Part shown: positions 3,308 through 37,768 of the stretch, piece after piece | Layout: every line of letters starts with the position of its first letter | Position numbering within the stretch: the stretch's first letter is position 1 | Source: Patescibacteria group bacterium | GTDB taxonomy: Bacteria > Patescibacteriota > Minisyncoccia > Phycocordibacterales > UBA1550 | Reading direction: 5' to 3' | Assembly: GCA_038062675.1 (NCBI GenBank) | Contig: JBBTWP010000004.1 | Location: 6,751 to 70,750 of the forward strand | DNA length: 64,000 nucleotides | Translations under genes and position numbers: made by a program | Notes under the pieces: generated by a model | What the model was told of the DNA's origin: nothing | Database searches by the model: none | Seen by the model: only the letters and a program-made list of their open reading frames with translations

Positions 3308-3670
3308 ATGCTTCTCATGTTAATGATTCGATTACAGCGCGTGGGAAGAAAGAACGATCCGTCGTTCCGCGTTATTGTTACTGATTCCAAATGGAAACCT
3401 AAAACGGGGAAATTCCTTGAAATTTTGGGTTCGTATGATGCGCGCAAGGGTGCGCCTGTTATCAACACTGAGCGCGCAAAACACTGGCTCTCTGTTGGTG
3501 CAAAAGCGTCAGGAACGGTACACAATCTCTTAATCAACCTCAAAGCGATTACTGGCAAGAAGGTGAATGTGTTGGGAAAGAAGACGCCTATTGCAAAAGA
3601 AGTAGTTGTGGAAGAGTCAAAAAAGGAGGAAGCACCAGTGGCAGAAGTTCCAGCTGAAGTAGTAGCGTAA
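3308..3670 (+). CDS. rpsP: 30S ribosomal protein S16
   Basis: MIRLQRVGRKNDPSFRVIVTDSKW... is a typical S16 N-terminus. Start chosen at an internal Met of the longer ORF. Basic/acidic C-terminal tail. Confidence 0.8.
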   Translation: MLLMLMIRLQRVGRKNDPSFRVIVTDSKWKPKTGKFLEILGSYDARKGAPVINTERAKHWLSVGAKASGTVHNLLINLKAITGKKVNVLGKKTPIAKEVVVEESKKEEAPVAEVPAEVVA

Positions 3671-3698
3671 TCAGAATAATCTTTTTGAGATTTAAAAA

Positions 3699-3731
3699 AC
3701 AGCCGACACAAAATGTGCCGGCTGTTTTAAT
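3699..3731 (+). terminator. Terminator after rpsP
   Basis: CAGCCGACACA / TGTGCCGGCTG stem followed by TTTTAAT. Confidence 0.55.
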
Positions 3732-3758
3732 GCAAGGCAGAAATTGCACTTTTCGATT

Positions 3759-3836
3759 CTGCGGAATCGTGTCGCGCAAGTCCGTTGGGCGCGACCGGCC
3801 TGCGGAATCGTGTCGCGCAAGTCCGTTGGGCGCGAC
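3759..3836 (-). repeat. Tandem dimer of a REP-like 37-nt hairpin unit (copies 3759-3795 and 3800-3836), in inverted orientation relative to 4291-4375
   Basis: CTGCGGAATCGTGTCGCGCAAGTCCGTTGGGCGCGAC repeated twice, 4 nt apart. Each unit holds an internal GTCGCGC/GCGCGAC hairpin. Confidence 0.8.
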
Positions 3837-3877
3837 TAAAAAATCCGTACCTTTGAAACGACACCTCAACCGAAGAA

Positions 3878-3907
3878 TTGCATAATTTAAAGTAACTATA
3901 GTATAAT
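3878..3907 (+). promoter_or_regulatory. Candidate sigma70 promoter for the KH-domain gene
   Basis: TTGCAT, an 18-nt spacer, then TATAAT, about 60 nt upstream of the ATG. Confidence 0.4.
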
Positions 3908-3969
3908 AAATATATTGTAAGAATAGTTGTCGAGAATATCACGGGCGATAAGATTTAGAATATACCAAT

Positions 3970-4281
3970 ATGACCCAAGAACCAGATGTAGTATTTCTTG
4001 AATACGTAGTAAAAGCACTTGTGGATCATCCCAGCGACGTGAGAGTTGGTCGTACTGTTGATGAAATGGGTGTACTTATTACACTCGATGTGAATCCGGG
4101 CGACATGGGTAAGATTATTGGTCGCACCGGCAACACCGCAAAGGCAATCCGCACGCTTCTTCGTGTGGTAGGAATGAAAAATAACGCTCGCGTGAATTTG
4201 AAAATCCATGAGCCCGAAGGTGGGAAGCCTGCATCGCCAACCAAGAGTGTTGACGAGGTGATCGATGGTTTGAAGGTATAG
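3970..4281 (+). CDS. KH-domain RNA-binding protein (YlqC/UPF0109 family)
   Basis: GKIIGRTGNTAKAIRTLL KH motif. Conserved position between rpsP and trmD. Confidence 0.8.
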   Translation: MTQEPDVVFLEYVVKALVDHPSDVRVGRTVDEMGVLITLDVNPGDMGKIIGRTGNTAKAIRTLLRVVGMKNNARVNLKIHEPEGGKPASPTKSVDEVIDGLKV

Positions 4282-4290
4282 TTTTTATTG

Positions 4291-4375
4291 CCCCCCCAAA
4301 GGACTTACGCGACGCGATTCCGCAGGTTCGTCGCGCCCAAAGGACTTACGCGACGCGATTCCGCAGAATCGAAAG
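4291..4375 (+). repeat. Tandem dimer of the REP-like unit (a partial copy at 4291-4326 and a full copy at 4329-4366 plus an AATCGAAA tail), inverted relative to 3759-3836
   Basis: GTCGCGCCCAAAGGACTTACGCGACGCGATTCCGCAG. About 90% identical to the reverse complement of the left cluster, including the flanking TTTCGATT. Confidence 0.8.
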
Positions 4376-4408
4376 CCCCGACATCTTTGATGTCGAGGCT
4401 TTTTCGTG
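4376..4408 (+). terminator. Hairpin plus T-run (terminator or attenuator) immediately upstream of trmD
   Basis: CGACATC-TTT-GATGTCG stem, then AGGCTTTTTCG. Confidence 0.35.
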
Positions 4409-4421
4409 TAGAGTGGTGAGT

Positions 4422-5111
4422 ATGACACGTTTTCATATCGTGAGCTTGTTTCCCGAGGTGTGTCGCTCGTACTGCGAAGCGTCGATTTTGGGGCGTGCGC
4501 AACAAGAAAAGCTCATCGAGGTTCTGTATGTGAACCCTCGTGACTTTGCGCGTGACAAACATCAAAAAGCGGACAATCGTCCGTACGGTGGCGGCCCCGG
4601 CATGGTTATGATTGCAGAACCACTTCTTTTGGCGCTTGAAAAGATCTCGAAAGACATTGCACGCAAAACCGCGCGCATGAAAAAACCCGCAAAAATAAAA
4701 ATCATTCTTTTTTCTCCTTCAGGAAAACAGTTTACGAATGTGTATGCAAAAAATTTGGTGACGAAGTATTCGGATATTGTGCTGATTGCTGGGCGCTACG
4801 AAGGCATTGATGCGCGTGTGAAAAAGATTTTCAAAGCAGAAGAAGTCTCGGTGGGGCCGTTTGTACTCACGGGCGGGGAAGTGCCTGCCATGGTGGTGGT
4901 GGATGCGTGCGCGCGACAGATTGAAGGGGTTTTGGGTGCCCATGAGTCTGTGGAGGAGCTTCGTCCACAAATAGGGCAGATGGCATCACCTGAGGTGTAC
5001 ACACGCCCCGAGGTACTTTCTTGGAAGGGTAAAAAGTACCGTGTTCCCAAAGTCCTTCTTGGTGGTGATCCAAAAAAAATAGAGGAGTGGAAGCAAAAGC
5101 AACAGGGATAA
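4422..5111 (+). CDS. trmD: tRNA (guanine37-N1)-methyltransferase
   Basis: RFHIVSLFPE, YGGGPGMVM and GRYEGIDARV motifs. GGTGAG Shine-Dalgarno. An alternative GTG start at 4413 is possible. Confidence 0.85.
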   Translation: MTRFHIVSLFPEVCRSYCEASILGRAQQEKLIEVLYVNPRDFARDKHQKADNRPYGGGPGMVMIAEPLLLALEKISKDIARKTARMKKPAKIKIILFSPSGKQFTNVYAKNLVTKYSDIVLIAGRYEGIDARVKKIFKAEEVSVGPFVLTGGEVPAMVVVDACARQIEGVLGAHESVEELRPQIGQMASPEVYTRPEVLSWKGKKYRVPKVLLGGDPKKIEEWKQKQQG

Positions 5112-14031: not shown

Positions 14032-15345
14032 ATGATCAAGAAAAACCCATCAACAAAAAAAATGGCATCATCAAAAAAGCCTGTGGCATCCGCTGGAAAA
14101 AAGAAAGTAATCGAAAAAGAAAAAAAACCTCTCGGTAAAGCGGTTAAAAAGGTTGTGCCAGTAAAAAAGGTTGTGGTAAAAAAGCCGGTGAAAAAAGTTG
14201 TTAAGGCTGCAACCTCAAAGAAACCTGCAGGTAAGGCGGTGAAGAAAGTTGCGTCAAAAACCGGCGGAAAGAAAAGCGGTAACTGGGAAGAAAAAGCGGC
14301 ACGCCTTATTTTAAAGGGTCGCGCGCGCGGATTTATCACCTTTAATGAAATTTTGAAAGAATTTCCACTTATTGAACAGGATATTTTGTTTCTTGATCAG
14401 CTGTATGAAAAACTCGGTGATGCAGGTGTGGATATCCTTGAAAGCGGCGGGCTTTTGGAGATTGAACCCGAGGAAGCGATTTCCCACAAAAAATATATTT
14501 ATAAAAGTGGCGACTCTTCGTACGACTCCATTCAAATGTACTTGAAAGAGATTGGACAGTACCCGCTCCTTTCACCGGTAGATGAGCGCACACTTGCACA
14601 GCGCATTCAGGCGGGAGATATGGAGGCAAAAAATTTACTCGCGCGTGCAAACTTGCGTCTCGTGGTTTCGATTGCAAAGAAATATGTGGGACGCAGTGCG
14701 GATCTTACGCTTCTTGACCTCATTCAAGAAGGGAACCTCGGTCTCTTTAAGGCAGTGGAGAAGTTTGAATGGGAGAAAGGATACAAGTTCTCAACCTACG
14801 CGACATGGTGGATCCGTCAGGCTATTACACGCGCGCTTGCTGATCAGTCACGTACGATTCGTATTCCGGTTCATATGGTGGAAACGATTTCGAAATATAA
14901 GCAGGTGGTGCGCCGTCTCTCGCAAGATCTTGGTCGCGAACCTCTTGCAGAAGAGGTCGCGACAGAAATGGGGCTTGAGGTTGAAAAAATCTATAACATT
15001 AAAAACATTGACCACGACACGGTGTCGCTTGAGAAATCTATTGGAGACGATGACGACAAATCAACGCTTGGTGAATTTATCGCCGATGACAAAATTCTTT
15101 CTCCGGACCAAGAGTCGGCGCGTCGCATTCTTTCTGATCAAGTAAAAGAAATTTTGGACGACCTTTCAGAAAAGGAGCGCAAGATTCTTGAAATGCGCCA
15201 CGGTTTGGTGGGCGGTATTGTACACACACTCGAAGAAGTGGGCAAGGAGTTCGGGGTGACACGTGAGCGCATTCGTCAGATTGAGGCAAAGGCGATTGAA
15301 AAGATTCGCCAACATGAGAAGGTGGGGAAGTTGAAGAATTATTAA
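14032..15345 (+). CDS. rpoD: RNA polymerase sigma-70 factor with a Lys-rich histone-H1-like N-terminal extension
   Basis: Region 2 to region 4 motifs DLIQEGNLGLFKAVEKF, YATWWIRQAITR and TLEEVGKEFGVTRERIRQIEAKA. N-terminal KKPV/KKVV repeats. Confidence 0.9.
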   Translation: MIKKNPSTKKMASSKKPVASAGKKKVIEKEKKPLGKAVKKVVPVKKVVVKKPVKKVVKAATSKKPAGKAVKKVASKTGGKKSGNWEEKAARLILKGRARGFITFNEILKEFPLIEQDILFLDQLYEKLGDAGVDILESGGLLEIEPEEAISHKKYIYKSGDSSYDSIQMYLKEIGQYPLLSPVDERTLAQRIQAGDMEAKNLLARANLRLVVSIAKKYVGRSADLTLLDLIQEGNLGLFKAVEKFEWEKGYKFSTYATWWIRQAITRALADQSRTIRIPVHMVETISKYKQVVRRLSQDLGREPLAEEVATEMGLEVEKIYNIKNIDHDTVSLEKSIGDDDDKSTLGEFIADDKILSPDQESARRILSDQVKEILDDLSEKERKILEMRHGLVGGIVHTLEEVGKEFGVTRERIRQIEAKAIEKIRQHEKVGKLKNY

Positions 15346-15355
15346 TTCGGCGCTA

Positions 15356-15493
15356 CGTGCGACAAGTCTTTTTCAGGGTACGGATATTCTGGTCGCGCCC
15401 AAAGGACTTGCGCGACACGATTCCGCAGAATCGAAAATCCTGAAGTTCTCGCGCCGTCGCGCTCCCTAGTCCCTGAAAAAGACTTGTCGCACG
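15356..15493 (+). ncRNA. Structured element A: a 23-bp perfect outer stem enclosing a REP-like unit (15392-15437) and a conserved core TCCTGAAGTTCTCGCGCCGTCGCGCTC. Candidate ncRNA or palindromic insertion element.
   Basis: CGTGCGACAAGTCTTTTTCAGGG ... CCCTGAAAAAGACTTGTCGCACG. The core is shared with the elements at 31029 and 35341. Confidence 0.5.
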
Positions 15494-15520
15494 CGCGGAG
15501 TTAATAATGTCTTCATGAAA

Positions 15521-26122: not shown

Positions 26123-27574
26123 TTATTTATAGTATACCGCACTTGGGTCTTTGAGGCGAAATGCGACAGAGAATGGGATATTAGTTTTTTGTTCCAAGTT
26201 GGTGAGAGGGAGTTCAACGTCGGCAAACATGGGCGATGCCTGAAGTGACTTCTTGAAGCGATTAAGGCTGTCACGGTTGCCGGATACTCCAACGACGGAC
26301 ATTTTGTCACCGACCGTCCCTGTTGAAAAGGTTGAAATTATAATATTTTCGGTTACCCTTGAGAGAACTTCTTCAATGACACCGCTCCAGACTGGCGTTT
26401 CTTTTAAGATTGCTTCACCTGCTTGAGTCATTCCATTTGTGTGGGTGATCATGGCTTCTTTTTGAATAAGTTCCGGTGGAACAGAATAGGAAGACAATGT
26501 GCTTATGGTTTTTACTGCATTCTGAGAAAGAAAGAGTACAAACAAATATGCACCAAGGTATGCCACCATGAAAAAAATAGAGACGCCAATGGTGATGTTT
26601 CGAAATAGAACCATAAAAATTGACGCTTTCTGGTAAGCGTAAGCCTCTTCGGTTCCTACAGGGAGGAGGCTAATGAGGTTGTCGCGCCCTTCGGGGATTT
26701 GTCCGCGAATGAGGGCGCCAAGTGGGATAAGCCATTTTGCCTTTGGGGCTGTAAGGGCGGGATGTTCTGCGTAGTCGTCGCGAATATGAGCCTCCATAAT
26801 GGCTTGCTCAATAATAGGTGTTTTTGAGTCGGACTCAAGGAAGCTTTTTATGTTTCGTACTTCACGAGCAACACGCTCTTCTGGTACGGAAGCTAGGGGG
26901 AGTGTTCGGGCAAAACGAAGTGAACCATTTTTGACGCTAAAAACTGTTGTTCCATCGGGAAATTTTTCAGTAAGGAGCGTCGTTTGGTTTGGGGGGAGTT
27001 TGATTGAGCGGGCGATACTGGCAAGGTGAGACTCTAGTGCCACCATTTTCCATCCAGCCTTATCGAGAGCCTCTACATAACCTTGAGCAACGGTGCGATC
27101 GATGGTTGAAAGAAGAATCTCGTTTGTTCCGTGAGTATCAAAAACGCGCTCCCAGTCGAGGTAGGCACTCTCTGTTTTTATGGGGAGTTGCAAGCTTATG
27201 GCAAGACGCATTGCTTCTGGTATGCGTGTGTCACCAACGCTTTTTGGAAACGAAAAGATACGAGAATAGATTTTGTTGTCGGGAATAGAGACAATTGCAT
27301 AATTGGTGTCAATTTTTATCTTTGTTCGGAGTAGCTGGAGTGTTTTTGCGAGAAGGTCTTTGTCTATGACTACTCCGTCCGCAATAATATTTGAAGGGAT
27401 GGGTTCCTCTACGAGTATGAGCTCGTCGTGCGGCGCGAGGTTCTTTTCTTTGTTTTTTTTATGGGAGAGCTTTTTAGGGGCGCGAAAGAAAGCAATGCGG
27501 ATGAGGGAGTCGCTAATTTCGATTCCAACAACATTTTTTTTCTGCGTAAGTAAATTTAATATGTTCATGTGCAA
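26123..27574 (-). CDS. pilM: Type IV pilus assembly PilM-PilN fusion protein
   Basis: N-terminal actin-like PilM region (GIEISDSLIRIAFF...) followed by a TM segment and a PilN-like periplasmic region. Confidence 0.75.
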   Translation of the reverse strand: MHMNILNLLTQKKNVVGIEISDSLIRIAFFRAPKKLSHKKNKEKNLAPHDELILVEEPIPSNIIADGVVIDKDLLAKTLQLLRTKIKIDTNYAIVSIPDNKIYSRIFSFPKSVGDTRIPEAMRLAISLQLPIKTESAYLDWERVFDTHGTNEILLSTIDRTVAQGYVEALDKAGWKMVALESHLASIARSIKLPPNQTTLLTEKFPDGTTVFSVKNGSLRFARTLPLASVPEERVAREVRNIKSFLESDSKTPIIEQAIMEAHIRDDYAEHPALTAPKAKWLIPLGALIRGQIPEGRDNLISLLPVGTEEAYAYQKASIFMVLFRNITIGVSIFFMVAYLGAYLFVLFLSQNAVKTISTLSSYSVPPELIQKEAMITHTNGMTQAGEAILKETPVWSGVIEEVLSRVTENIIISTFSTGTVGDKMSVVGVSGNRDSLNRFKKSLQASPMFADVELPLTNLEQKTNIPFSVAFRLKDPSAVYYK

Positions 27575-27721
27575 TTTGTTACCAATTCATTATACCAAGT
27601 TTTTAAAGAGCATGCTATACTTTTTGAGAAGAAAGCGTTATTGATAATTTTAAAATAAAATTTTTATGATAAGTTCACGATTGTTTTCTGAAACCTTAGT
27701 CTTATTATACTAATCGACACT

Positions 27722-30205
27722 ATGTCACTTCGAACAAAAATAATTAGCTTGCTCGGGATAATTACGGTTCTTTTATTGGGTCTTGTTGTTTATTATTTTC
27801 AGTATCCGTTGAAAGAAAGTTTTAGGCGAGAAGTCGAGAGCAATCTAAATGATTTAGCGGAAGTCAATTTACGTACTTACCGTGCGTTTTCCGAAGGACT
27901 CAAGATCCGCACAGTGGACTGGAGCGCAGGCGACCAAGTGGTACGATTTGCAGAAAAAATTTTAGATAAAAATACTCCACTTGCAAAGAGAAATCTTGCA
28001 GCAAGTGAATTTGCTGCGTACATTCGTGAATACAAAATGCCCTATGACCCCGATGCTATTATTGTCGAGATACTTGACTCAGAGGGGGTGGTCGTTGCCT
28101 CAACACGCGAAGATAGAATAGGTACAGACGAACGCCAAGAAGAAATCGAAAACAACGTGCACCATTTTGCAAAAACGCTGCACGCGGGCATTGGAGAGGC
28201 GTTCATGCGAGGCTCTGTACTCGAAGCGGACGAGACGGATCGGCCTATGTCGCACATAACAACTCGCTTGTTTTCAAAAAGAAAAGACGCGCAAGGGAAT
28301 TTTATCCCCCTCCCGGGAGTTTTTCTTGTTCATTTTGTTTCCGCTGCTTCCTTGTTGGAATTTCAGCAAAAAAAATCTGACAAAAATCTCGCTACGGACT
28401 CTCTAAATAAATCTGTGACAGGACTTCAAGGTCTTGATGTGTATTTAGTGAATGGTGATCGTTTGATTGCAAGCGCACCAAACTCGGGAAGTGCGGAGAT
28501 GGTCGGAAAACCAATTGCCACAAAACCAGTGAGCGAGTGTTTTGATCGCGGAACCGATACGTTTGGGGAATATGTAAATTATAGAGGGGTAACAGTCTTG
28601 GGTGCTTCACGTTGCCTTGTAGAGGAAGGAGTCTTGATTTTAAATGAGATGGAAGTCAAAAAAGCTTATACTTTTTTGACTGACTTGGTTCGAAAAACAA
28701 TTTTTGCCGGAGTAGCATTAGCAGCAGGATTCGTTTTTTTTGTGATTCTCGTCACTCGACGACCATTGAAAAACCTTAAACTCATGGTTGATGTTGCCGA
28801 AGCTGTGTCTAAAGGAGACCTTACTAAACGAGCTCTCGCTATTGGACGTGATGAAATCGGCTACCTTGCCCGTGTTTTTAATGCAATGCTCGAAACAATA
28901 TCAGCGTCTCAAGGCAAGTTAATGGAATCAGAGAAAAAACTTGAGCAGGAAGCAGAAAAACTCTTGAAAGATTTGAGTGAACATAAAGAGCAGTCAAAAT
29001 TTGTCGAACAATCAAAGCGTGCCACACAAAATCTTCTGGAAGACGCGTGGGAAATTAAAGAAAAGCTTGAAGTTGAACGTAATCGATTACAGACGATTCT
29101 CGCTTCTATTGGTGACGCCTTGGTGCTTATTGATATTCAGTACAGTATTGTATTGGTCAATCCAAAAGCAGTTGAAATTTTTGCAACACCTGCCACGGAT
29201 CTCCTTGGAAAAGACTTGCGTGTAGTAATGAAACTGATAAAGAAGAAGAAAGGAGAATTGTCGCCCGCAGAGTGGCCTATTGAAGAAATGTTTCTTGCAA
29301 AACACGTGATAGTTGCTGACCTTGAAGATGAACTCTCTTTGATGACCGAAAAGCGCACAGGACCTCTCCCGATAGCGCTCTCTGCGGCGCCTCTTGTGGG
29401 AGAAGGCGGGGAAACTACGGGTGGGGTGATTGTTATTCGTGACGTAACGGAGGATCGAGAGCTCGATGAGGCGAAGTCAGGCTTTATTTCTGTTGCTTCG
29501 CACCAACTCCGTACGCCTCTTACAACGATTCGTTGGTATTCGGAAATGCTTTTGGGGGACGATGTGGGAAACATGACTAAAGAGCAACGAGAATTTCTCG
29601 AAGAGATTCATGGCGGGGCGGAGCGGTTGTATCAAACTATTGACTTGCTTTTGGGTATTTCCCGTGTCGAGAGCGGGAAGCTAAAAGCTGAAAAAAAGCC
29701 TATTGATCTTACTTTATTTACAGCTGATTTAGGAAAAGAACTTGCTCCACAGATGATCGAAAAGAAGTTGGTATTTTCAATGGTGCCTCCCCTTGGTGAA
29801 CCAGTGATTGTTTCGCTTGACCCTCTAACGCTTCGCCAAGTGGTGCTGAACTTGGTTTCTAATGCAATTCGTTACACCAATGAAAATGGTACGATTGAAG
29901 CGAAGTGGGCAGTTGATGATAAGCATACCGAAGTAACGTATTTAGTAAAAGACAATGGTATCGGCATTCCTTTGGCTCAGCGTGGACGCATTTTCTCGAA
30001 ATTTTTCCGAGCAGAGAATGCGCTTTCCAAGGTTCCTGATGGGTCAGGGCTTGGACTTGCCTTGGTTAAGGAACTTGTTCTCGCATGGGGTGGAAAAGTT
30101 TGGTTTGAGGTTGAGGAAGGAAAGGGAACTACATTTTTCTTTACGATTCCCCTCGTGTCCTCCGTGGAGCCACTTGCAGAAGATGCTCAACGTGCTAAGA
30201 TATAA
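27722..30205 (+). CDS. Sensor histidine kinase (TM-sensor-TM-HAMP-PAS-HisKA-HATPase)
   Basis: H-box ISVASHQLRTPL, N-box LVSNAIRYT, G1 KDNGIGIP and G2 GSGLGLALV. Confidence 0.85.
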   Translation: MSLRTKIISLLGIITVLLLGLVVYYFQYPLKESFRREVESNLNDLAEVNLRTYRAFSEGLKIRTVDWSAGDQVVRFAEKILDKNTPLAKRNLAASEFAAYIREYKMPYDPDAIIVEILDSEGVVVASTREDRIGTDERQEEIENNVHHFAKTLHAGIGEAFMRGSVLEADETDRPMSHITTRLFSKRKDAQGNFIPLPGVFLVHFVSAASLLEFQQKKSDKNLATDSLNKSVTGLQGLDVYLVNGDRLIASAPNSGSAEMVGKPIATKPVSECFDRGTDTFGEYVNYRGVTVLGASRCLVEEGVLILNEMEVKKAYTFLTDLVRKTIFAGVALAAGFVFFVILVTRRPLKNLKLMVDVAEAVSKGDLTKRALAIGRDEIGYLARVFNAMLETISASQGKLMESEKKLEQEAEKLLKDLSEHKEQSKFVEQSKRATQNLLEDAWEIKEKLEVERNRLQTILASIGDALVLIDIQYSIVLVNPKAVEIFATPATDLLGKDLRVVMKLIKKKKGELSPAEWPIEEMFLAKHVIVADLEDELSLMTEKRTGPLPIALSAAPLVGEGGETTGGVIVIRDVTEDRELDEAKSGFISVASHQLRTPLTTIRWYSEMLLGDDVGNMTKEQREFLEEIHGGAERLYQTIDLLLGISRVESGKLKAEKKPIDLTLFTADLGKELAPQMIEKKLVFSMVPPLGEPVIVSLDPLTLRQVVLNLVSNAIRYTNENGTIEAKWAVDDKHTEVTYLVKDNGIGIPLAQRGRIFSKFFRAENALSKVPDGSGLGLALVKELVLAWGGKVWFEVEEGKGTTFFFTIPLVSSVEPLAEDAQRAKI

Positions 30206-30222
30206 GAATAATATTTGTAAAA

Positions 30223-30606
30223 ATGGAAGCACAAAAACAAAAAACTATTCTTTTGGTGGAAGACGACAAAGCGCTTAATCGTGCGGTGATGTTTAAGCTT
30301 GAGCAAAAGGGACACAAAGTCATCTCAACCATGCGTGCCGAGGATGCGCTGGATATTCTCAAAAAAGAATCCGAACATATTGATATTATTTGGCTGGATA
30401 TTCTTTTGCCCGGCATGAACGGCATTGAATTTTTGGAAGAAATTCGCAAGCGCGAAGAAGGGAAAGATAAAAAAGTAGTTGTTTGCTCGGTTTCTGGGCG
30501 TGCGGACTCAAAAGGGGTTGCGTATGAGCTCGGCGTGGTTGATTATTTAGTGAAAAGCGATTATGATTTGAATACTCTTGTCGAGAAGGTTGTGAGTTAT
30601 GCGTAG
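30223..30606 (+). CDS. Stand-alone response regulator receiver (CheY-like)
   Basis: DD pair ILLVEDD, phospho-acceptor D in IWLDILLPGMNG and a conserved K near the C-terminus. Confidence 0.85.
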   Translation: MEAQKQKTILLVEDDKALNRAVMFKLEQKGHKVISTMRAEDALDILKKESEHIDIIWLDILLPGMNGIEFLEEIRKREEGKDKKVVVCSVSGRADSKGVAYELGVVDYLVKSDYDLNTLVEKVVSYA

Positions 30607-30625
30607 GTTTTTAGACTCTTAAATT

Positions 30626-31006
30626 ATGGATACTAACAAGAAAAAAATAGTAATTGTGGAGGACGATGATCATATTTCAAAAGTATATGAGATAAAGTTC
30701 GCCAAAGAAAATGTAACCACTGTTGTTGCGCGTGACGGTGAGGAGGGTGTGGCGAAAATCAAATCAGAAAAACCGGACATGATTTTACTTGACCTCATGG
30801 TTCCCAAGAAAGATGGATTCGCGGTGCTTGAAGAAATAAAGAAAATTCCAGAGCTCGCCAAGATTCCTGTTATGGTTCTCTCAAACCTTGGTCAAAAGGC
30901 TGACCAAGAACGTGCCATGGCACTTGGTGCAAATGAATATTTGGTCAAGGTTGATTACCCCATTCAGGAAGTAATCAACAAGGTCAAGGGGTACTTGGGG
31001 TTGTAG
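30626..31006 (+). CDS. Second stand-alone response regulator receiver
   Basis: IVIVEDDD, ILLDLMVPKKDG and a conserved K near the C-terminus. Paralogue of the previous gene. Confidence 0.85.
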   Translation: MDTNKKKIVIVEDDDHISKVYEIKFAKENVTTVVARDGEEGVAKIKSEKPDMILLDLMVPKKDGFAVLEEIKKIPELAKIPVMVLSNLGQKADQERAMALGANEYLVKVDYPIQEVINKVKGYLGL

Positions 31007-31028
31007 GGGTAAGTTACGGAACCGCTTA

Positions 31029-31128
31029 CGCAGTGTGCTGTTGTAAGGGTACGGATTTTTTGAAGCTTAAAAAATCCTGAAATTCTTACGCCGTCGCGTT
31101 CGAAACCCCCTTAAAACAGCACACTGCG
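31029..31128 (+). ncRNA. Structured element C: covarying outer stem CGCAGTGTGCTGTT/AACAGCACACTGCG around an inner TTTTTTGAAGCTTAAAAAA hairpin and the conserved core
   Basis: Core CCTGAAATTCTTACGCCGTCGCGTTCGAAACCCCC is homologous to elements A and B. Sits immediately 3' of the response-regulator stop. Confidence 0.5.
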
Positions 31129-31267
31129 ACGGGTTTCGTAATCTGGCATTTCAAAATGGAAGGACCGAGTGATAGTTATCCACAGGGAACTTTTCTTTTT
31201 CAAGTCCCCTTTGCTATAATAAAAGAGCATTATTAAAAATTTATAAATTATGATTTCATCAATAAAC

Positions 31268-31942
31268 ATGGCAGAGAAGCGCAAAGACGGTTTTACTCTT
31301 CTCGAACTTTTAATCGTTATTTCGATTATCGCGATTTTGTCAGTAGCACTTGTGCTGGTCTTGGATCCCGCAGAAACTTTAAAGAAGTCACGTGACTCAC
31401 AGCGTCTTTCGGATTTAAGTACCATGAAAACAGCAATCGCGCTCTATCTCACGAGTACGACAACTCCGTATTTGGGAGCTGCAACAGCAGGGGCTTTGAA
31501 TAATACTAATTGCAAAGCAACGCCATCTGCCGCAACCGCTAAGGTTATGTACTCGCTCGTTTCAACCAGTGCTATTACCGATACAACACTTGACGCAGCT
31601 TCGGCCTCGGCAGCCGTTCAAGTTGCAACACCATCGTTAACAAATGGTGCAGGATGGATTCCTGTTATGTTTGACAATTTAACTGGTGGATCTCCAATCT
31701 CCAACATGCCTCTCGATCCCGTTAACACCGTGACCGCACTTGGGGCTGTCGCAAGCACTGATCTTGTATACCGATATGCATGTTCAGTAACTCCGTTGGC
31801 ATTTGAGCTTGGAGCACAACTTGAAAGTATTGCGTATACGTCAACTGATAATAAGAAGTCAACTGATGGTGGCAATAATGACAACTACTACGAAGTTGGT
31901 ACAAATCTGAGAATTCTTGATGGCGCAACGAACCAATACTAA
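31268..31942 (+). CDS. Type IV (major) pilin with a class III signal peptide
   Basis: KRKDG|FTLLELLIVISIIAIL prepilin cleavage/methylation motif with Glu at +5. C-terminal DGGNNDNYYE. Confidence 0.8.
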   Translation: MAEKRKDGFTLLELLIVISIIAILSVALVLVLDPAETLKKSRDSQRLSDLSTMKTAIALYLTSTTTPYLGAATAGALNNTNCKATPSAATAKVMYSLVSTSAITDTTLDAASASAAVQVATPSLTNGAGWIPVMFDNLTGGSPISNMPLDPVNTVTALGAVASTDLVYRYACSVTPLAFELGAQLESIAYTSTDNKKSTDGGNNDNYYEVGTNLRILDGATNQY

Positions 31943-31967
31943 ATCCTTATTAATTAATTCACTATTT

Positions 31968-32717
31968 ATGATTTCACTTATCACCGCAAATGAAGAAAAG
32001 CGCAAGAATGGATTTACCCTCCTTGAGCTCTTGATTGTTATTTCAATCATCGCCATTTTATCCATCGCCCTTGTGTTCTTGCTCAACCCTGCGGAAACAC
32101 TTAAGAAAGCTCGTGATGCACAGCGCATCTCAGACTTGAAGACTATTAAGACTGCCCTCGGCGTTATGCTTACAGCAAGCTCAACGCCAAGTTTGGATAG
32201 TTTCACCGCACAAGCAACAGCAGTATGTCTCACTGCAACAACAGCAGCAGGAGCGACTACATTGTCTACGGCTCCGAAAATTAGATATAGTGCCAATACT
32301 GCGCCTACTCTGACTTCTGCCACCCCTGGAGCTGATGCTGCAAGTACTGCAACAGCTTTTATTTCCGCTGCTTCTGGCTCAACGGCAGGAAAAGTTGATG
32401 CTACGGGCTGGATCCCAGTAAATTTGAAAGCGTTGACAGGAGGTACACCAATTTCAGCTTTTCCTATCGACCCTGTTAATACTGTCAGTTCTACTGCTAC
32501 TGTCACAGATCTTGTTTATCGCTACGCATGTCAAAACGGAACGACAGCGTCAGTTGGTTCAGGGAAGCCAGCATATATTTTTGAGATTGATGCTGTACTT
32601 GAAAGTAACGCGTATACTCAGGATGATAACAAGATGTCAAAAGATGGCGGAGACAATGACTCTTACTATGAGTCAGGGAATAGTTTGAATCTCTTGCCTG
32701 CTGCAGGTGCATTCTAG
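31968..32717 (+). CDS. Type IV pilin paralogue (longer ORF from 31917)
   Basis: KRKNG|FTLLELLIVISIIAIL. C-terminal DGGDNDSYYE, conserved with the upstream paralogue. Confidence 0.8.
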   Translation: MISLITANEEKRKNGFTLLELLIVISIIAILSIALVFLLNPAETLKKARDAQRISDLKTIKTALGVMLTASSTPSLDSFTAQATAVCLTATTAAGATTLSTAPKIRYSANTAPTLTSATPGADAASTATAFISAASGSTAGKVDATGWIPVNLKALTGGTPISAFPIDPVNTVSSTATVTDLVYRYACQNGTTASVGSGKPAYIFEIDAVLESNAYTQDDNKMSKDGGDNDSYYESGNSLNLLPAAGAF

Positions 32718-32744
32718 TTTGATTCATTAAATTTTGATTTTACA

Positions 32745-32783
32745 AAAACACCCCCGCGGAAACGCGAGGGTGTTTTTGTGTTT
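32745..32783 (+). terminator. Rho-independent terminator after the pilin pair
   Basis: AAAACACCC...GGGTGTTTT outer stem with a CGCG-GAAA-CGCG inner stem, then a T-run. Confidence 0.7.
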
Positions 32784-32817
32784 TGGTGCTAAAAATTTTA
32801 TGTGATAGAATATTTCC

Positions 32818-33513
32818 ATGATGGATATAATAGAGAATATGTATTTACGGGTTTTGTTTCAGTTTACACATCCAGAGCCGCAGGTGATTGTGGGCATAAT
32901 TTGGCTTTTGATTGTAGTTGTCGCACTTTTTCGTTACATAGAATTTTCGTTTTTTACACGGGTTTCGTGGAAATGGCTTGTGGTTGTGGCTGTTGTTCTC
33001 CGTATTGGTTACGGTGCAACTCTAACATGGCTGCAATATGCACAATGGGAGAGTAGTTCATTTACTCAAACTTTTTTGACTCAACCGCTTTCAAAAGAAG
33101 CGCCACTTCCACTTCTTCTTGAATGGGTGCGTCCCTCTCTGGAGCAACCATTGGGATATTTTATTTTTTATGTATTCGGACGCTTTTGGATTAACATCAT
33201 AATCATTTTAGGGCTAGCAGGATTTTTTGCAGCACTCCTCAAGCTTCGTGCGTATTATCGTCCTTGGAACTTTAAAGAAGGAGAGATCTTGGCAATTACA
33301 CTTTCTCTCCTTGTGTCGGGGTGGCCGGGGGTTATCGTCCTCCTGCCCCTTGCGTTTATTTTTGCAATTATTTTCTCAGTCATCTCTTCTACTTTTTACG
33401 GAGTTTCGCGAATTTATCTAACCCCTGCGTTTTTGGTTGCCGCTCCTGTTGCGCTCCTGTACGGGGCAGCGATCCTTAAGTTCGTTGGTTTGTACGCTCT
33501 ACTCAAAATCTAA
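32818..33513 (+). CDS. Hypothetical polytopic membrane protein in the pilus locus
   Basis: Six or so TM helices. Almost no acidic residues, so it is not an A24 prepilin peptidase. Confidence 0.5.
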   Translation: MMDIIENMYLRVLFQFTHPEPQVIVGIIWLLIVVVALFRYIEFSFFTRVSWKWLVVVAVVLRIGYGATLTWLQYAQWESSSFTQTFLTQPLSKEAPLPLLLEWVRPSLEQPLGYFIFYVFGRFWINIIIILGLAGFFAALLKLRAYYRPWNFKEGEILAITLSLLVSGWPGVIVLLPLAFIFAIIFSVISSTFYGVSRIYLTPAFLVAAPVALLYGAAILKFVGLYALLKI

Positions 33514-33623
33514 TTCCCTAGGACCGTCCTCGGGAAATGTTCTCGGAAAGTTAAAAGAGTGGAATAGAGTTATACACATTTTTAAAGTCGTTATCGGATT
33601 TTGGTATGATATACTTATAACTA

Positions 33624-35333
33624 ATGCATATTGGACAAGAAAAGCTAAAAGAAATATTGCTTGAATCCGGACTCGTGAGCGATGAGGATTTTGAATATGC
33701 TACTGCAGAGGCTCGGCGCAGCGGACAGTCGCTTTCTAATGTCTTGGTTGGAGAAGGCAAAATTTCTGAAGATTATTTTACCGAACTCCTTGCTCCCTAT
33801 TATGGTGTTCAGGTTGTGAATCTCAAAAAAGAAACTATAGACCATGAGATTTTGGAGCTTATTCCTGAAATATACGCGAAGTCAAAGAATATTGTATTGT
33901 TTTTTTATGATAAAGAGAAAGGTATTGCAAAACTTGCCATGCTCGACCCCTTTGACTACGATACTATTGAGTATGTGCGGGCGAAGCTTGATGCGTGGGT
34001 CGAACCTTATCTCTCGACAGTCGCAAGTGTTCGTTATGGGCTCAAGCAATACAGCACAAAAATCGGTGTTGGCTTTGAACAAATCATTTCTGAAAATGTT
34101 GAACAGTCGCTTTCTGTTGCTGAAGAAAAAGATCTTTCAAAAACAGCTGCGTCGGTGCCTATTGTTACCATCCTTGATAATGTTATCGAGCATGCAGTTA
34201 CTTTAAATGCATCCGATATTCATTTTGAGCCCCTTGAGCATGAACTTTTGGTGCGTTTTCGTGTCGATGGCATCATGCAGGAGGTGGTGAGTCTCCCGAA
34301 AGCAATTGCTCCTGTTTTGGTCGCGCGCGTAAAAATCCTCGGAAGTCTTCAGATTGACGAACACCGCACCCCTCAGGATGGACGTTTTCGTTTTGATATG
34401 GACGATGGATCAAATATTGATTTACGCGTAAATATCATGCCGATTTTCCACGGGGAGAAAGTGGAAATGCGTCTCTTGAAGAGCTCTGCGCGACCACTGA
34501 CGCTCAAAGACCTTGGTTTTTCGGATGCAAATACCGCAGTCCTTGTAAATGAAGTCAAAAAACCCCACGGTATGATTTTAGTGACGGGGCCAACAGGACA
34601 TGGAAAAACTACAACACTGTATGCGGTGTTGCATATTCTCAATAAACCATCCGTGAACATTACAACCATTGAGGATCCTATTGAGTATGAGTTTCCGCGC
34701 GTAAATCAAACACAAGTAAACCAGAAAGCGGGGATTACGTTTGCAAATGGACTTCGCGCGCTTTTGCGTCAAAATCCCGACATCATTATGGTGGGTGAAA
34801 TCCGTGATAATGAGACGGTTGAAATTGCAATTCATGCCGCGCTTACGGGGCACCTTGTGCTGTCATCACTTCACACCAATGATGCCCCCTCTGCTATCCC
34901 ACGCCTTTTGGATATGGGTGCGCCGGCGTTCCTGTTGTCTTCAACTATCAACATGGTTATCGCTCAGCGTCTTGTGCGACGTATTTGTGCGTCGTGTACC
35001 GAGTCATATCCTGTAAGCCCAGAAATGGCGCGCCTTCTCAAGGCGCAAATCGAGCTGGCGGGGACCACAAATAGTAATGTTCCGGCGAGCTTGTTTCGTG
35101 GTAAGGGGTGCAAGGTATGCGGGAATTCCGGATATCAGGGGCAGATTGGTATTTTCGAGCTTTTGCGGGTTACTGAATCAATTCGTGCATTGATTTTGGA
35201 CGAAGCATCCATTCCGGAAGTGCGAAAGAAAGCAATTGAAGAGGGGATGATCACGATGTTTGAAGACGGGCTCGACAAGGTTGAGCGGGGAGTTACGACT
35301 GTGGAGGAGGTGCTCAGGGTAGTAAAAGAATAG
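33624..35333 (+). CDS. pilB: Type IV pilus assembly ATPase PilB (GspE family)
   Basis: N-terminal GSPII_E_N-like domain. Walker A GPTGHGKTT, Asp box, His box and tetracysteine CASC...CKVCGNSGY. Confidence 0.9.
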   Translation: MHIGQEKLKEILLESGLVSDEDFEYATAEARRSGQSLSNVLVGEGKISEDYFTELLAPYYGVQVVNLKKETIDHEILELIPEIYAKSKNIVLFFYDKEKGIAKLAMLDPFDYDTIEYVRAKLDAWVEPYLSTVASVRYGLKQYSTKIGVGFEQIISENVEQSLSVAEEKDLSKTAASVPIVTILDNVIEHAVTLNASDIHFEPLEHELLVRFRVDGIMQEVVSLPKAIAPVLVARVKILGSLQIDEHRTPQDGRFRFDMDDGSNIDLRVNIMPIFHGEKVEMRLLKSSARPLTLKDLGFSDANTAVLVNEVKKPHGMILVTGPTGHGKTTTLYAVLHILNKPSVNITTIEDPIEYEFPRVNQTQVNQKAGITFANGLRALLRQNPDIIMVGEIRDNETVEIAIHAALTGHLVLSSLHTNDAPSAIPRLLDMGAPAFLLSSTINMVIAQRLVRRICASCTESYPVSPEMARLLKAQIELAGTTNSNVPASLFRGKGCKVCGNSGYQGQIGIFELLRVTESIRALILDEASIPEVRKKAIEEGMITMFEDGLDKVERGVTTVEEVLRVVKE

Positions 35334-35340
35334 GACGCTC

Positions 35341-35435
35341 GCTAAGTTCTTTTTAGGGTACGACTTTTTTGAAGCTTAAAAAAGTCTGAAGTTCTCGCGC
35401 CGTCGCGCTCAAAACCCCCTAAAAAGCAACTTAGC
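35341..35435 (+). ncRNA. Structured element B: outer stem GCTAAGTTCTTTTTAGGG/CCCTAAAAAGCAACTTAGC, inner GACTTTTTTGAAGCTTAAAAAAGTC hairpin and conserved core
   Basis: Core CTGAAGTTCTCGCGCCGTCGCGCTCAAAACCCC is identical to element A. Sits immediately 3' of the pilB stop. Confidence 0.5.
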
Positions 35436-35546
35436 TCGCTTTAAGGTTAAATGCCGTGTAGGGCACCAAGAAAAAGAAGAGCTCGCTTTACAGTGTCAAT
35501 CTGATGTATAATAAATGTAGTATTCAAATATTGAATTCGCAAATTT

Positions 35547-36770
35547 ATGGCAATATTTACTTATGAAGCATATGATGGTTCCGGCGCTGTTCTTCGGGGG
35601 GAGTACGAGGGCTCTTCTCAAGACGAGGTGTCGCAGTATCTTTTCAAGAGAAGTCTTACGCCCATTTCTATCACCATGCTTTCTGGTAAGCACGGTGGCA
35701 TGCAGAAGTTTCTATCTTCTTCCCCGTTTGAGAAACTTGATGCTGTTGATGTAATGTTCTTGGTACGAAACCTCGCCACGACCGTTAAGGCTGGGCTTTC
35801 ATTGATGGAGGCACTCGATATTCTTATTGCCGATGCAGAGAAAAACATTTTAAAGAAAGTGCTCAGGGAGGTGCAGGCCATGGTCAAAAATGGGCAGCAG
35901 CTTTCTGCAGGGTTTGAAGCGTATGCTAGTTCATTCCCTCCTGTTTTTATAGGAATGCTGAAAGCCGGAGAAGGCTCTGGTCAACTCGACAAAACACTTG
36001 CGGAGCTCGGTCGTTATTTGGGTAAAGAATATGCTCTACGGAGCAAAATAAAATCTGCACTGATGTATCCGGTTATTCTACTTGTTGCATCTACGGGAGT
36101 GGTGACGCTTCTTCTTATGTTTGTGTTGCCGCGGCTTACCAAGGCGTTTTTAGCGAGTGGCGTTGAGCTCCCCCTTCTTACTAAATTCTTTCTTGCTTTA
36201 TCCAATGCACTTACGTGGAGTTATGCGCTCGATGGTGTAGTGTTTGTGGTGGCGTTGTGGTTCTTTTTGTATTTTCGTACAACACAACTTGGGAAAAGAT
36301 TTTTCTTTTTTACTATGTCGCATGCACCCGTGGCAAGGGATTTGGTAAAAAAGGTCGCGCTCGTACGTTTCTCTCGCACGCTCTCAAATCTTATTGGTAG
36401 TGGACTTTCGGTTGTGGAAGCACTCGACCTATCGTCGCAATCGATTGGGAATCGGACATATACACTTGCGCTCAATCAGGTAATTATGGAAGTCAAGACC
36501 GGTAGCCCTATTTCCGGCGCACTTGAAAAATTTCCAAAACTTTTCCCGCGCATGCTCGTGAGTTTGGTGGTGGTGGGGGAACGTACGGGAACACTTGGAC
36601 AGATTCTTTCCACTTTTGCCGACTTTTATGAAGAGGAAGTTGACGGCAAGCTTAAAGACCTGACCGCTGCTCTGGAGCCGATACTCTTGCTCCTTATGGG
36701 AGTTTTGGTGGGGTCGATTGCCGTTTCTATTATTCTCCCTATCTATCAACTCGTGGGTAATTTTGTCTAA
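35547..36770 (+). CDS. pilC: Type IV pilus platform protein PilC (GspF family)
   Basis: Two GspF repeats and three TM helices. C-terminal LLMGVLVGSIAVSIILPIYQL. Confidence 0.9.
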   Translation: MAIFTYEAYDGSGAVLRGEYEGSSQDEVSQYLFKRSLTPISITMLSGKHGGMQKFLSSSPFEKLDAVDVMFLVRNLATTVKAGLSLMEALDILIADAEKNILKKVLREVQAMVKNGQQLSAGFEAYASSFPPVFIGMLKAGEGSGQLDKTLAELGRYLGKEYALRSKIKSALMYPVILLVASTGVVTLLLMFVLPRLTKAFLASGVELPLLTKFFLALSNALTWSYALDGVVFVVALWFFLYFRTTQLGKRFFFFTMSHAPVARDLVKKVALVRFSRTLSNLIGSGLSVVEALDLSSQSIGNRTYTLALNQVIMEVKTGSPISGALEKFPKLFPRMLVSLVVVGERTGTLGQILSTFADFYEEEVDGKLKDLTAALEPILLLLMGVLVGSIAVSIILPIYQLVGNFV

Positions 36771-36777
36771 ACTTAAT

Positions 36778-37245
36778 ATGCACATACATACAACATCATC
36801 AGGATTTTCAATGTTTGAACTTTTGATTGTCTTGAGTATTGTTGCTGTTTTGGGAGGCGGCGGAGTTGGATTTTATCAAAATTTTTCAAAAGATGTTGAG
36901 CTCAAGACTACGATGCGAGTGATAAATGCCGACTTGCGCACTGCACGAGCAAAGTCTATGGCGCGACAAGACGACCTAAAGTGGGGGGTGCATTTTGTGA
37001 ATGATGGCGCAAATCCACATTATTACGAACTTTTCTCAACTCCTACCGATTATGCGAATGCAAGTATGTCCGTGAGCGCAACCACCACTCTTTCTAAAGG
37101 TCTTACATTTTCTGATCCGAGCTCGGGAACAAAAGACATTATTTTTTACAAAGTCGCCGGCACTACGACAGCGTCCACCGTGGGTGTGACCTCAAGCGCC
37201 GGCACACAGACGCTCACTATTTCGGCGTTGGGGACAATTTATTGA
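36778..37245 (+). CDS. Prepilin-type N-terminal domain protein (pilin or pseudopilin)
   Basis: SG|FSMFELLIVLSIVAVL class III signal. The longer ORF from 36718 overlaps pilC. Confidence 0.7.
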   Translation: MHIHTTSSGFSMFELLIVLSIVAVLGGGGVGFYQNFSKDVELKTTMRVINADLRTARAKSMARQDDLKWGVHFVNDGANPHYYELFSTPTDYANASMSVSATTTLSKGLTFSDPSSGTKDIIFYKVAGTTTASTVGVTSSAGTQTLTISALGTIY

Positions 37246-37246
37246 T

Positions 37247-37768
37247 ATGTATAAAAAAGTTTCCAATTACGCCTTTATTGATAGCCAAAATCTCAATCTT
37301 GCAATTCAGGATCAGGGATGGAAGCTTGACTTTACCCGTTTTCGAGTATACCTCAAAGAAAAATATGGTGTGACAAAAGCCTTTCTGTTTATAGGGCACA
37401 TCGAAGGCAATAATCATTTGTATATTTCTCTACAGTCAGCTGGGTTTCTTTGTGTTTTTAAACCGACACTCGAGTACAAGGATGGTACAACCAAAGGCAA
37501 CTGCGATGCGGAATTGGTTCTTCATGCGATGATAGAGTATCCTAACTACGACAAAGCGATAATCGTTACCGGAGATGGGGATTTTTATTGTTTAGCCCAG
37601 CACTTGCTTGAAAAAGATAAATTGCAGGCAATTCTTATTCCCAATAAGTTGAAGTTCTCAGGACTTTTAAAGTTTAAGATATTTCGCCCTTATTTGCGAT
37701 TAATGAACGATTTAAAAGAGCTATTAAGGTATAAAAAGAAAAGGCCCTATGAGGACAAAACCTCATAG
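37247..37768 (+). CDS. NYN (LabA-like, PIN-fold) nuclease-domain protein
   Basis: YAFIDSQNL, GNCDAELVLHAM and IIVTGDGDF acidic motifs of NYN domains. The start lies 1 nt after the pilin stop. Confidence 0.65.
   Translation: MYKKVSNYAFIDSQNLNLAIQDQGWKLDFTRFRVYLKEKYGVTKAFLFIGHIEGNNHLYISLQSAGFLCVFKPTLEYKDGTTKGNCDAELVLHAMIEYPNYDKAIIVTGDGDFYCLAQHLLEKDKLQAILIPNKLKFSGLLKFKIFRPYLRLMNDLKELLRYKKKRPYEDKTS

Follow-up and report, generated by a model that had tools for sequence, protein, structure and literature searches.

The DNA analyzed here (hereafter the window) is a 64-kb stretch of a Patescibacteria metagenome-assembled genome (MAG) from Hainich groundwater (well H41), and its proteins are closest to those of Candidatus Yonathbacteria and other Parcubacteria. 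Patescibacteria genomes are streamlined, approximately 1 Mb in size, and thought to be poor in repetitive or mobile DNA. In the window, the gene of a KhpA-like KH protein is bracketed by two clusters of a short hairpin-forming repeat, hereafter the unit. To describe the unit, we compared the window with loci retrieved from other assemblies (L001 onward), including L031 from another Hainich well, the nearest relative.

Organization of the KH locus

The local gene order is RNase R (minus strand), rpsP, the KH gene, trmD, rpoB, rpoC, dnaG, and rpoD. The features from rpsP to trmD are as follows.

3308..3670 (+): rpsP, ribosomal protein S16 (Pfam Ribosomal_S16 on the L001 gene, identical to the window here)
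3696..3728 (+): native two-way rpsP terminator (A-run, hairpin, T-run) with 15-nt arms, 93% complementary; kept in L031, where the site is empty
3754..3795 (-): left cluster, outer unit, complete at 42 nt (hairpin a, A, hairpin b); covariance model 72.7 bits; absent from L031
3796..3799 (-): 4-nt linker, GCCG in unit orientation, from the sequence
3800..3836 (-): left cluster, inner 37-nt unit without AATCG, 100% identical to 3759-3795
3837..3896 (-): 60-nt arm of a longer palindromic element that came with the left dimer; homologous to the 5' side of units in L015, L008, and window 15332-15391; absent from L031
3878-3883: TTGCAT, now at the -35 position of the putative KH promoter, inside the 60-nt arm 3837-3896
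3902..3907 (+): native putative -10 box TATAAT of the KH promoter; TAGTATAAT is kept upstream of KH in L029, L030, L031, and L036
3970..4281 (+): native KhpA-like KH-domain gene, 103 aa (PF13083; thousands of same-length homologues with native C-termini at the same rpsP-trmD position)
4289..4325 (+): right cluster, first unit, 37 nt, with a degenerate 5' stem arm (sequence and profile comparison)
4326..4329 (+): 4-nt linker GTTC, from the sequence
4330..4371 (+): right cluster, complete 42-nt unit of the A19/G26 subtype; covariance model 71.7 bits
4375..4404 (+): terminator-like hairpin and T-run 3' of the right dimer (stem 4379-4395); not present in L031
4422..5111 (+): trmD (PF01746), unit-free allele of an insertion site at about 4679/4680

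Analysis of the clusters confirmed the arrangement given in a preliminary description of this DNA, with two head-to-tail dimers in opposite orientation around the KH gene, at 3754-3836 (-) and 4289-4371 (+). The 37-nt stretches of the left cluster (3759-3795 and 3800-3836) recur with a period of 41 nt. Those of the right cluster (4289-4325 and 4330-4366) are identical over their 3' 28 nt, and the 5' arm of the first reads TGCCCCC in place of GTCGCGC (4 mismatches), a detail missing from the preliminary description. As reported there, both units of a cluster carry the same variants, C12 on the left and A19 and G26 on the right. The unit had been given a length of 37 nt; the repeat itself stands, and the complete unit is 42 nt long when AATCG, belonging to the 3' arm of hairpin b, is included. 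Similarly, the inverted repeat, described as about 85 nt at about 90% identity, is present, with measured arms of 93 nt (3751-3843 and 4282-4374) that are 84% complementary, and the value of 90% applies only to a 40-nt core. The A-run of the flanking 'AATCGAAA', previously counted as part of the repeat, is native flank, since it is also present in the empty site of L031. The rpsP terminator 5' of the left arm and the hairpin and T-run between the right arm and trmD lie where they had been placed. The proposed TTGCAT-18-TATAAT promoter is of mixed origin: TAGTATAAT, which is probably the -10 box of the KH-trmD promoter, is native and conserved, the -35 element lies inside inserted DNA, and the pair was not listed by the automated promoter scan of the region.

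Structure of the repeat unit

The complete 42-nt unit reads GTCGCGC-CCAAAGGACTT-GCGCGAC-A-CGATTC-CGCA-GAATCG and forms two hairpins. Hairpin a consists of a 7-bp stem and the 11-nt loop CCAAAGGACTT, and is separated by a single A from hairpin b, which consists of a 6-bp stem and the loop CGCA. Folded as DNA, the two strands reach -13.9 (z = -4.8) and -13.7 kcal/mol, with z of about -4 to -5. The unit is thus a short imperfect palindrome that can fold as a single strand, as expected of repetitive extragenic palindromic (REP) sequences and bacterial interspersed mosaic elements (BIMEs). Its inverted repeats are the internal stems, and it has no terminal inverted repeats. The unit occurs alone, as a head-to-tail dimer, nested in the loops of other hairpins, and once in-frame in trmD. 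Copies from different genomes are at least 90% alike, and 17 of 19 copies start with GTCG, the other two, which have a degenerate 5' arm, starting with TGCC.

Alignment of the 19 copies revealed that 89.9% of the stem cells are paired, compared with 12-45% when the 3' partner columns were slid. Double changes (C-G to T-A) were observed at three stem pairs, a level matched by 14 of 500 shuffles; the support from covariation is only moderate because the unit sequence is so conserved. The loop sequences are conserved to the same degree as the stems, and G-U pairs cannot tell a DNA-level from an RNA-level role of the hairpins. None of the six reading frames of the consensus unit contains a stop codon, which is also true of 3.8% of composition-matched shuffles.

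In the dimers, the upstream unit ends after CCGCAG and is followed by a 4-nt linker, and AATCG is found only on the last unit. The linkers in unit orientation are GCCG (left), GTTC (right), and ACTA (in L015), these being all known dimers (n = 3). All three doublets are head-to-tail, and their period is constant at 41 nt. Neither a simple 41-nt tandem duplication nor insertion of one unit into the hairpin b loop of another reproduces the observed junctions, with a linker unlike both flanks and a single AATCG, and both models were rejected.

The anatomy of the unit also bears on the idea that the clusters are a degenerate CRISPR or TIGR-type (tandem interspaced guide RNA) mini-array, or a DNA-uptake sequence. 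At 37 nt, the unit is close to the size of such repeats, its GTCGCGC stem recalls some CRISPR repeats, the window contains a type IV pilus cluster, and TIGR arrays occur in Patescibacteria (PMC12045711). However, the putative spacers are only 4 nt long, and the units are identical, with no variable segments and two per site. No Cas or Tas (Nop-domain) gene was found near the units in the window protein scans, no CRISPR direct-repeat (CRISPR-DR) family matched the units, and three sites per 64 kb together with a 42-nt length are far from known uptake sequences. We rejected this explanation on anatomy and regard its probability as negligible. Hammerhead and other small ribozymes, integron attC sites, and Xer/dif modules were likewise rejected on their core motifs, judged by eye; no integrase is present.

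Filled and empty sites in relatives

Comparison with L031 (KH protein 96% identical; rpsP 91% and KH 88.5% identical at the nucleotide level) revealed that it is collinear with the window from rpsP and its terminator to KH and trmD, with both repeat blocks absent. At the left site, 145 nt of the window (3754-3898) correspond to 11 nt in L031; at the right site, the L031 spacer is 61 nt long and carries neither units nor a terminator. No units are present at either KH-flanking site in L030, L033, and L036, and the KH-trmD spacer of L029, whose contig begins inside the left block, is also unit-free. Since the closest and more distant relatives have no units at the KH-flanking sites, the empty state is ancestral. 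Examination of related genomes, a check named in the preliminary description, thus yielded plain spacers without repeats, which argues against a conserved architecture and for insertion.

A further copy of the unit was found inside trmD of L030 and L031. It lies in-frame (CTTCG|GTCGCGC...GAATCG|AAAAAAG), is exactly 42 nt (14 codons) long, and extends a variable, Lys-rich TrmD loop by SRPKDLR(D/N)PIPQNR. The TrmD reading frame of L030 with the unit is full-length (246 aa), and TrmD is uninterrupted in the window, L029, L033, and L036. The junctions show no duplicated bases, and this is the sole cleanly resolved site, with precise 42-nt boundaries.

These comparisons weigh heavily on the idea that the clusters delimit an invertible or mobile cassette, with arms that serve as terminal inverted repeats or recombination sites, between which the 455-bp segment of promoter and KH gene would flip or move as a whole. 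The geometry of the 93-nt, 84% complementary arms around a promoter-bearing segment is what such a cassette would have. However, the position of KH between rpsP and trmD, and its orientation, are the same in all relatives whether or not they carry units, and L031 lacks both arms yet keeps KH and the -10 box. The two arms are of different subtypes. The region has the same orientation and an identical sequence in five assemblies from different samples (the window and L001, L002, L003, and L004). As the preliminary description had noted, no recombinase is adjacent: a Pfam scan of 40 open reading frames (ORFs) across the 64 kb found no transposase, integrase, invertase, or recombinase. The cassette that had been suggested is therefore largely refuted, and we consider it highly improbable. 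The possibility that the element supplies the C-terminus of the KH protein was also rejected, as homologues without units end in the same ...DGLK(V/L/M).

Comparison of the individual genes revealed that the locus is mosaic: rpsP and KH of the window are closest to L031, and trmD is 90.6% identical to L029 and 76% to L031. This relatedness, read from the sequences, suggests a recombination breakpoint in or near the KH-trmD spacer, and that spacer is an insertion hot spot. A BrnT/BrnA-like toxin-antitoxin pair occupies it in L029 (518-1036), L030 (1836-2354), and L033 (3430-3947). The 21-nt sequence AAATTATTAGGyGACAGGTCT, absent from the window, is common to non-homologous spacers of two relatives; it was found in the KH-trmD spacer of L031 (981-1001) and L032 (382-402) and in the rpsP-KH spacer of L036 (2824-2844), L037 (404-424), and L038 (25-45), and could represent a regulatory site or a further small dispersed element. 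The rpsP-KH spacer of L033 (about 2871-2928) carries a long near-perfect palindrome with arms GACTATGTATACGGTAC and GTACCGTATACATAGTC and a central TATA, unrelated to the unit; palindromic insertions at this spacer recur in the clade.

Distribution across genomes

To determine how widely the unit occurs, we scanned one genome per species (185,579 species) with an exact 22-nt pattern. The unit was found in four other Patescibacteria MAGs (a Nomurabacteria genome, Parcubacteria GWA1_47_8, Hainich H41-bin112, and ELA641). Two further matches, in Haloarcula and Labilithrix contigs, consist of the pattern alone within high-GC sequence and are due to chance. Viral contigs contained no match to the same pattern and thus give no indication that the unit came from phages. 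Screening of JGI/ENA metagenomes with a second pattern yielded six more distinct sites (L015, L020, L022, L024/26, and L028), the other matches of that pattern being high-GC coding sequence. A hidden Markov model (HMM, run with nhmmer) and a covariance model were built from the copies and run on the retrieved loci and the window. They identified three units at two sites in L015 and two units in L028, and no window copies beyond those already known. Covariance scores fell mostly into two groups, 65-80 bits for full units and at most 10 bits for noise, with the truncated 37-nt unit of the left cluster at 39.6 bits. Two decayed copies detected by nhmmer (L015 413-452 and window 4295-4331) were not recovered in unit orientation by the covariance model.

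In total, about ten other metagenomic genomes of Patescibacteria (Parcubacteria/Paceibacteria) carry near-identical copies, which are located at unrelated loci and point in either direction. The copy number is modest, with three sites (five units) in the 64 kb and one exact-pattern match per representative genome. The neighboring genes are unrelated and include mraY/ftsW, leuS, tsf, rplL, rpoD, rpsP, and a membrane protein gene. At the few sites available, the 5' flank is usually TTyG or TTTA and the 3' flank AAA. Rfam searches over the window gave no match at gathering thresholds; at E-values up to 10, only sub-threshold noise appeared in both regions, consisting of miRNA-like long hairpins and an rli61 hit overlapping the rpsP terminator. 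Six-frame peptides of the unit were compared with a set of 5.8 billion proteins, where the query is too short to be informative; three candidates were scored, and the one match was a spurious ORF of the source genome. A literature search found no description of REP-, RPE- (Rickettsia palindromic element), or MITE-like (miniature inverted-repeat transposable element) repeats in Patescibacteria.

This distribution can be set against the view that the unit is a structured RNA or DNA element selected by the host, such as a 3' stabilizer, processing site, terminator helper, or protein-binding site, with the inverted pair forming an RNase III-substrate duplex that isolates the KH mRNA. In the predicted minimum-energy structure of 3672-4425 (-304.8 kcal/mol, z = -14.6), approximately 85 bp are formed between the two clusters, a gene for RNase III is located 6 kb upstream, and the units are frequently found beside terminators and after highly expressed genes (rpsP, rplL, and rpoD). 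The conservation of the loops at the level of the stems, and of the trmD copy far beyond its flanks, also favors selection. However, the architecture around KH is absent from the nearest relative and from all others examined, and with the KH promoter inside the pair, most KH transcripts would be without the left arm. The units lie in mixed orientation to transcription (about seven sense to five antisense), one copy is within a coding sequence, the downstream genes (ftsW, leuS, tsf, and that of a membrane protein) are unrelated, and no Rfam family matches. The RNA stem proposed in the preliminary description to isolate KH is thus borne out as a predicted fold; it would require read-through of the rpsP terminator, it is not conserved, and it fails for the copies elsewhere. 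We consider host selection as the origin of the repeats unlikely.

Two side observations were made during these searches. Large serine recombinase genes (Resolvase, Recombinase, and Zn-ribbon domains) are located 1.8-2.3 kb from units in L017 (532-2181) and L020 (1140-2768); as mobilizers of the unit they were rejected, since they share only 22% identity and do not adjoin the units, and their proximity is probably a coincidence. In addition, three independent contigs, which include the NCBI MAG contig CAYHNS010000003.1, stop exactly at repeat borders: L003 at its position 1 (window 3751), L029 at its position 1 (window 3892), and L039 at its end, in the apex of the post-rpoD palindrome. The unit family seems to break assemblies.

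Element A and composite forms

The further unit that the preliminary description had placed in element A was confirmed as a consensus copy. The two features are as follows.

15346..15500 (+): element A, a long palindrome between the rpoD stop codon and the native terminator, with arms 15356-15378 and 15471-15493 (23/23 complementary)
15392..15433 (+): 42-nt unit of consensus sequence, lying in the GGATATT/AAAATCC hairpin loop that forms the apex of element A; covariance model 79.4 bits

The segment 15392-15428 has no mismatch to the consensus given in the preliminary description, with no such match expected in shuffled windows. Element A, which folds with -72.7 kcal/mol (z = -7.2), is a separate, longer palindromic element bearing the unit at its apex. 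The terminator 3' of it is native and conserved in relatives. Comparison of relatives at this site revealed three states. L040 (rpoD 87% identical) has the terminator only, with no element A. L039 (95%) has the same palindrome arm with the plain apex GGATTTTTTG-AAGCTT-AAAAAAT in place of the unit; its contig ends 13 nt beyond the unit position, within the apex, so that the right half of the palindrome falls outside it. L044 (90%) has a diverged palindrome whose center keeps a hairpin b, TCATTC-AACA-GAATGA, with two compensatory pairs. The long inverted arms of the carriers in element A, L008, and L044 differ in sequence and keep their complementarity. The left block at KH is a combination of one such arm and a dimer, ending directly 5' of the KH -10 box; as an independent repeat, the 60-nt 5' arm has no additional copies in the window.

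Units were found in the loops of other hairpins in three cases, and elsewhere they lie between a T-rich 5' flank and an A-run that often belongs to a two-way terminator. In L006, L009, L010, and L022, the unit sits between CyTG and ACrrTT and splits the 11-nt loop of a diverged unit of 41-42 nt, which is recognizable from the flanking GTCGCGC...GCGCGAC and the following AT-rich hairpin. These copies abut start codons; a riboswitch-like leader was considered and rejected, since the downstream genes are unrelated and nesting in a diverged unit fits better.

Two other loci have composite layouts. In L028 (3650-3800, minus strand), a unit and a 3' GC-rich module, CGCGCCGaCGCGC, which is also present in element A and L008, lie between two direct terminator-like hairpins of about 30 nt, CCGGCCGAAAAGTTACTTGAGCGTAACTTT; these direct repeats could be a long target duplication or reflect insertion into a duplicated terminator. 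In L015 (a 1,044-nt contig), the units at 848-890 and 369-452 have the same orientation, each is followed by its own terminator hairpin, and together they bracket an opposite-strand ORF of about 84 aa, which resembles the layout in the window with direct instead of inverted geometry.

Origin of the two clusters

Comparison of the copies provided information on how the two clusters arose. The unit at 15392 equals the family consensus, from which the left units differ at 1 nt and the right unit at 2 nt, with 3 nt between left and right. The A19 allele of the right cluster also occurs in L006, L008, L009, and L010, paired there with a compensating T, and the 60-nt palindrome arm is present on the left block only. 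These star-like differences and the one-sided arm indicate two independent arrivals, not the two ends of one cassette. The sequences argue for each arrival having then doubled locally or having arrived already doubled. L015 and L028 likewise have unit sites no more than a few hundred bp apart, so that insertion near an existing copy seems favored.

Alternatively, one dimer could have been copied from the other by a replication template switch, producing a local inverted duplication. Both clusters are dimers of the same 41-nt period, 455 nt apart, and the clustering in L015 and L028 would fit. However, 3 of 37 positions differ between left and right, each of which is separated by only 1-2 changes from the consensus at 15392; alleles of the right subtype occur in other genomes, and the 60-nt arm of the left block is absent from the right. 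We therefore regard a template switch as very unlikely.

Taken together, these results make it likely that a small non-autonomous hairpin element inserted separately in each of the two spacers flanking a native KH gene, giving the two inverted dimers. The eye-catching inverted geometry is an accident of two insertions, and the arrangement appears to have no designed function. It may nevertheless have had consequences. The left insertion would have pushed the native -35 region (TTGTGC/TTGCAC) to about 135 nt from the conserved -10 box and supplied its own TTGCAT 18 nt upstream of it; on rpsP read-through transcripts, the arms could pair as a duplex of approximately 85 bp around the KH message. 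Neither the promoter change nor the RNA pairing is conserved, and therefore neither explains the existence of the repeats.

The copies could be made in trans by an enzyme encoded elsewhere that recognizes the folded single strand. A trans-acting nuclease is proposed because of the precise ends, the lack of target duplication, the conserved stems and loops, the hairpin-loop or terminator-adjacent targets, and the lack of a local recombinase. The likeliest candidate would be an HUH/Y1 nuclease, similar to RAYT (REP-associated tyrosine transposase) or to IS200/IS605 TnpA, acting on hairpins exposed during replication. Such HUH/Y1-type copying is put forward only tentatively.

Several observations weigh against reading the clusters as insertions of a mobile element. 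As no transposase was identified, mobility is deduced from presence and absence alone, and the copy number given above is modest. The conservation is partly an ascertainment effect, because the copies from other genomes were retrieved with exact patterns, and covariation adds only the moderate support already described. The constant 41-nt period of the dimers, with a variable 4-nt linker replacing AATCG, is not accounted for. The left insertion comes with the loss or divergence of about 10 nt, and the right site offers no clean filled and empty pair, its spacer being rebuilt in every relative and holding the toxin-antitoxin pair in three. In addition, the trmD copies of L030 and L031 have one difference in about 60 nt, with the flanking trmD sequence about 20% different. 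This suggests selection acting on the sequence, gene conversion, or a recent transfer by recombination, unlike a simple decaying parasite. Alongside insertion, there may be contributions from a host function, from recombinational transfer, or from gene conversion between copies.

With the insertion of a mobile element as the preferred reading, a wider and more speculative picture can be drawn, which we offer as possible though doubtful. The unit would be among the smallest self-contained mobile DNA modules, copied without target duplication into single-stranded hairpin loops (of terminators, the carrier palindrome, and its own relatives) by a Patescibacteria enzyme not yet recognized, exchanged between candidate genera, and constrained even in coding sequence. 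If so, the unit would be a hairpin-targeting element of a new kind and would naturally mark DNA exchange among ultra-small bacteria. On the preferred reading, the element, which is shared nearly unchanged across lineages, could be used as a tracer of recent DNA exchange in groundwater communities, and it would offer a handle toward the enzyme that copies it. It would also rewire promoters and terminators within essential gene clusters of the ribosome and RNA polymerase, and it is a recognizable cause of MAG contig breaks (three contigs here).

Other features of the window

Three further regions of the window were recorded. A 1,499-aa ORF (38633-43132) contains 6.9 tandem copies of a 135-nt (45-aa) repeat at 40841-41756, where the GC content is locally 54%, and is flanked by two NYN-domain genes (37247-37768 and 43168-43671). 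The type IV pilus/competence-type cluster (26123-37245), with PilM/N-like proteins, a PilB ATPase, PilC, and several prepilins, adjoins a histidine kinase and two receiver proteins. The minus strand at 44866-54728 encodes a multicopper oxidase together with three P-type ATPases, one of which has a heavy-metal-binding domain; the region is a metal-handling island within a very small genome. A Suf cluster and ZnuABC are located further along.

Comparison with known systems

The closest parallels to the unit are REP/BIME sequences and the REPINs (REP doublets forming hairpins) of proteobacteria, which are mobilized by RAYT. Like the unit, these are short (about 35-45 nt) imperfect palindromes, mostly extragenic and often terminator-adjacent; they occur in both orientations and in clusters, are non-autonomous, and cause no target duplication. 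They are reportedly conserved because an enzyme acting in trans must recognize the folded strand. The suggestion in the preliminary description of a REP/BIME-like family holds in the broad sense, as the window has several copies, about ten further genomes have others, and close relatives differ in their presence. It does not hold for specific traits: the unit has two hairpins instead of one and the head GTCG instead of GT[AG]G, has one in-frame copy in a coding sequence, and is nearly unchanged across candidate genera. Few copies were seen in the 64 kb and in each representative genome, and no RAYT (Y1 HUH transposase) was found among the 40 window ORFs scanned against Pfam; the gene between the clusters is KhpA and not a nuclease. 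Unlike the pairs of REPINs and BIMEs, which are inverted and spaced by a few tens of nt, its doublets are direct (period 41, 4-nt linker), and the sole inverted pair is 455 nt apart and of different subtypes.

RPEs resemble the unit as palindromic selfish DNA in a reduced genome. They are about 150 bp long, with 44 insertions in Rickettsia conorii genes (PMC10969869). In an RPE-like manner, the unit inserts in-frame in a housekeeping gene with the ORF preserved, as in the 14 codons of TrmD. It differs in its length of 42 nt rather than 100-150 bp, in having one coding insertion seen and most copies intergenic, in its host phylum, Patescibacteria, and in the lack of any sequence relation. Bacterial MITEs (Correia/NEMIS, ERIC, RUP, BOX, and QMITE) are likewise non-autonomous and vary in presence between strains, can supply promoter elements and fold in transcripts, and when truncated can look like REPs (PMC10969869). 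In contrast to MITEs, the unit has no terminal inverted repeats, target duplication, or recognizable parent insertion sequence, and MITE-like long inverted arms are found only in the longer palindromic carrier (element A, L008, and L044). The unit also recalls PATEs (palindrome-associated transposable elements) in its two hairpins and lack of target duplication, with no TnpA found in the window ORF scan. PATEs, which derive from IS200/IS605, have subterminal hairpins, no terminal inverted repeats or target duplication, and insert beside a short specific sequence. Set beside these systems, the unit is an apparently new family of short non-autonomous palindromic repeats of the REP/RPE-like kind, dispersed in Parcubacteria-type Patescibacteria, with habits that are unusual for such repeats: a double hairpin, nesting in loops, insertion into a coding sequence, and a cross-lineage distribution.

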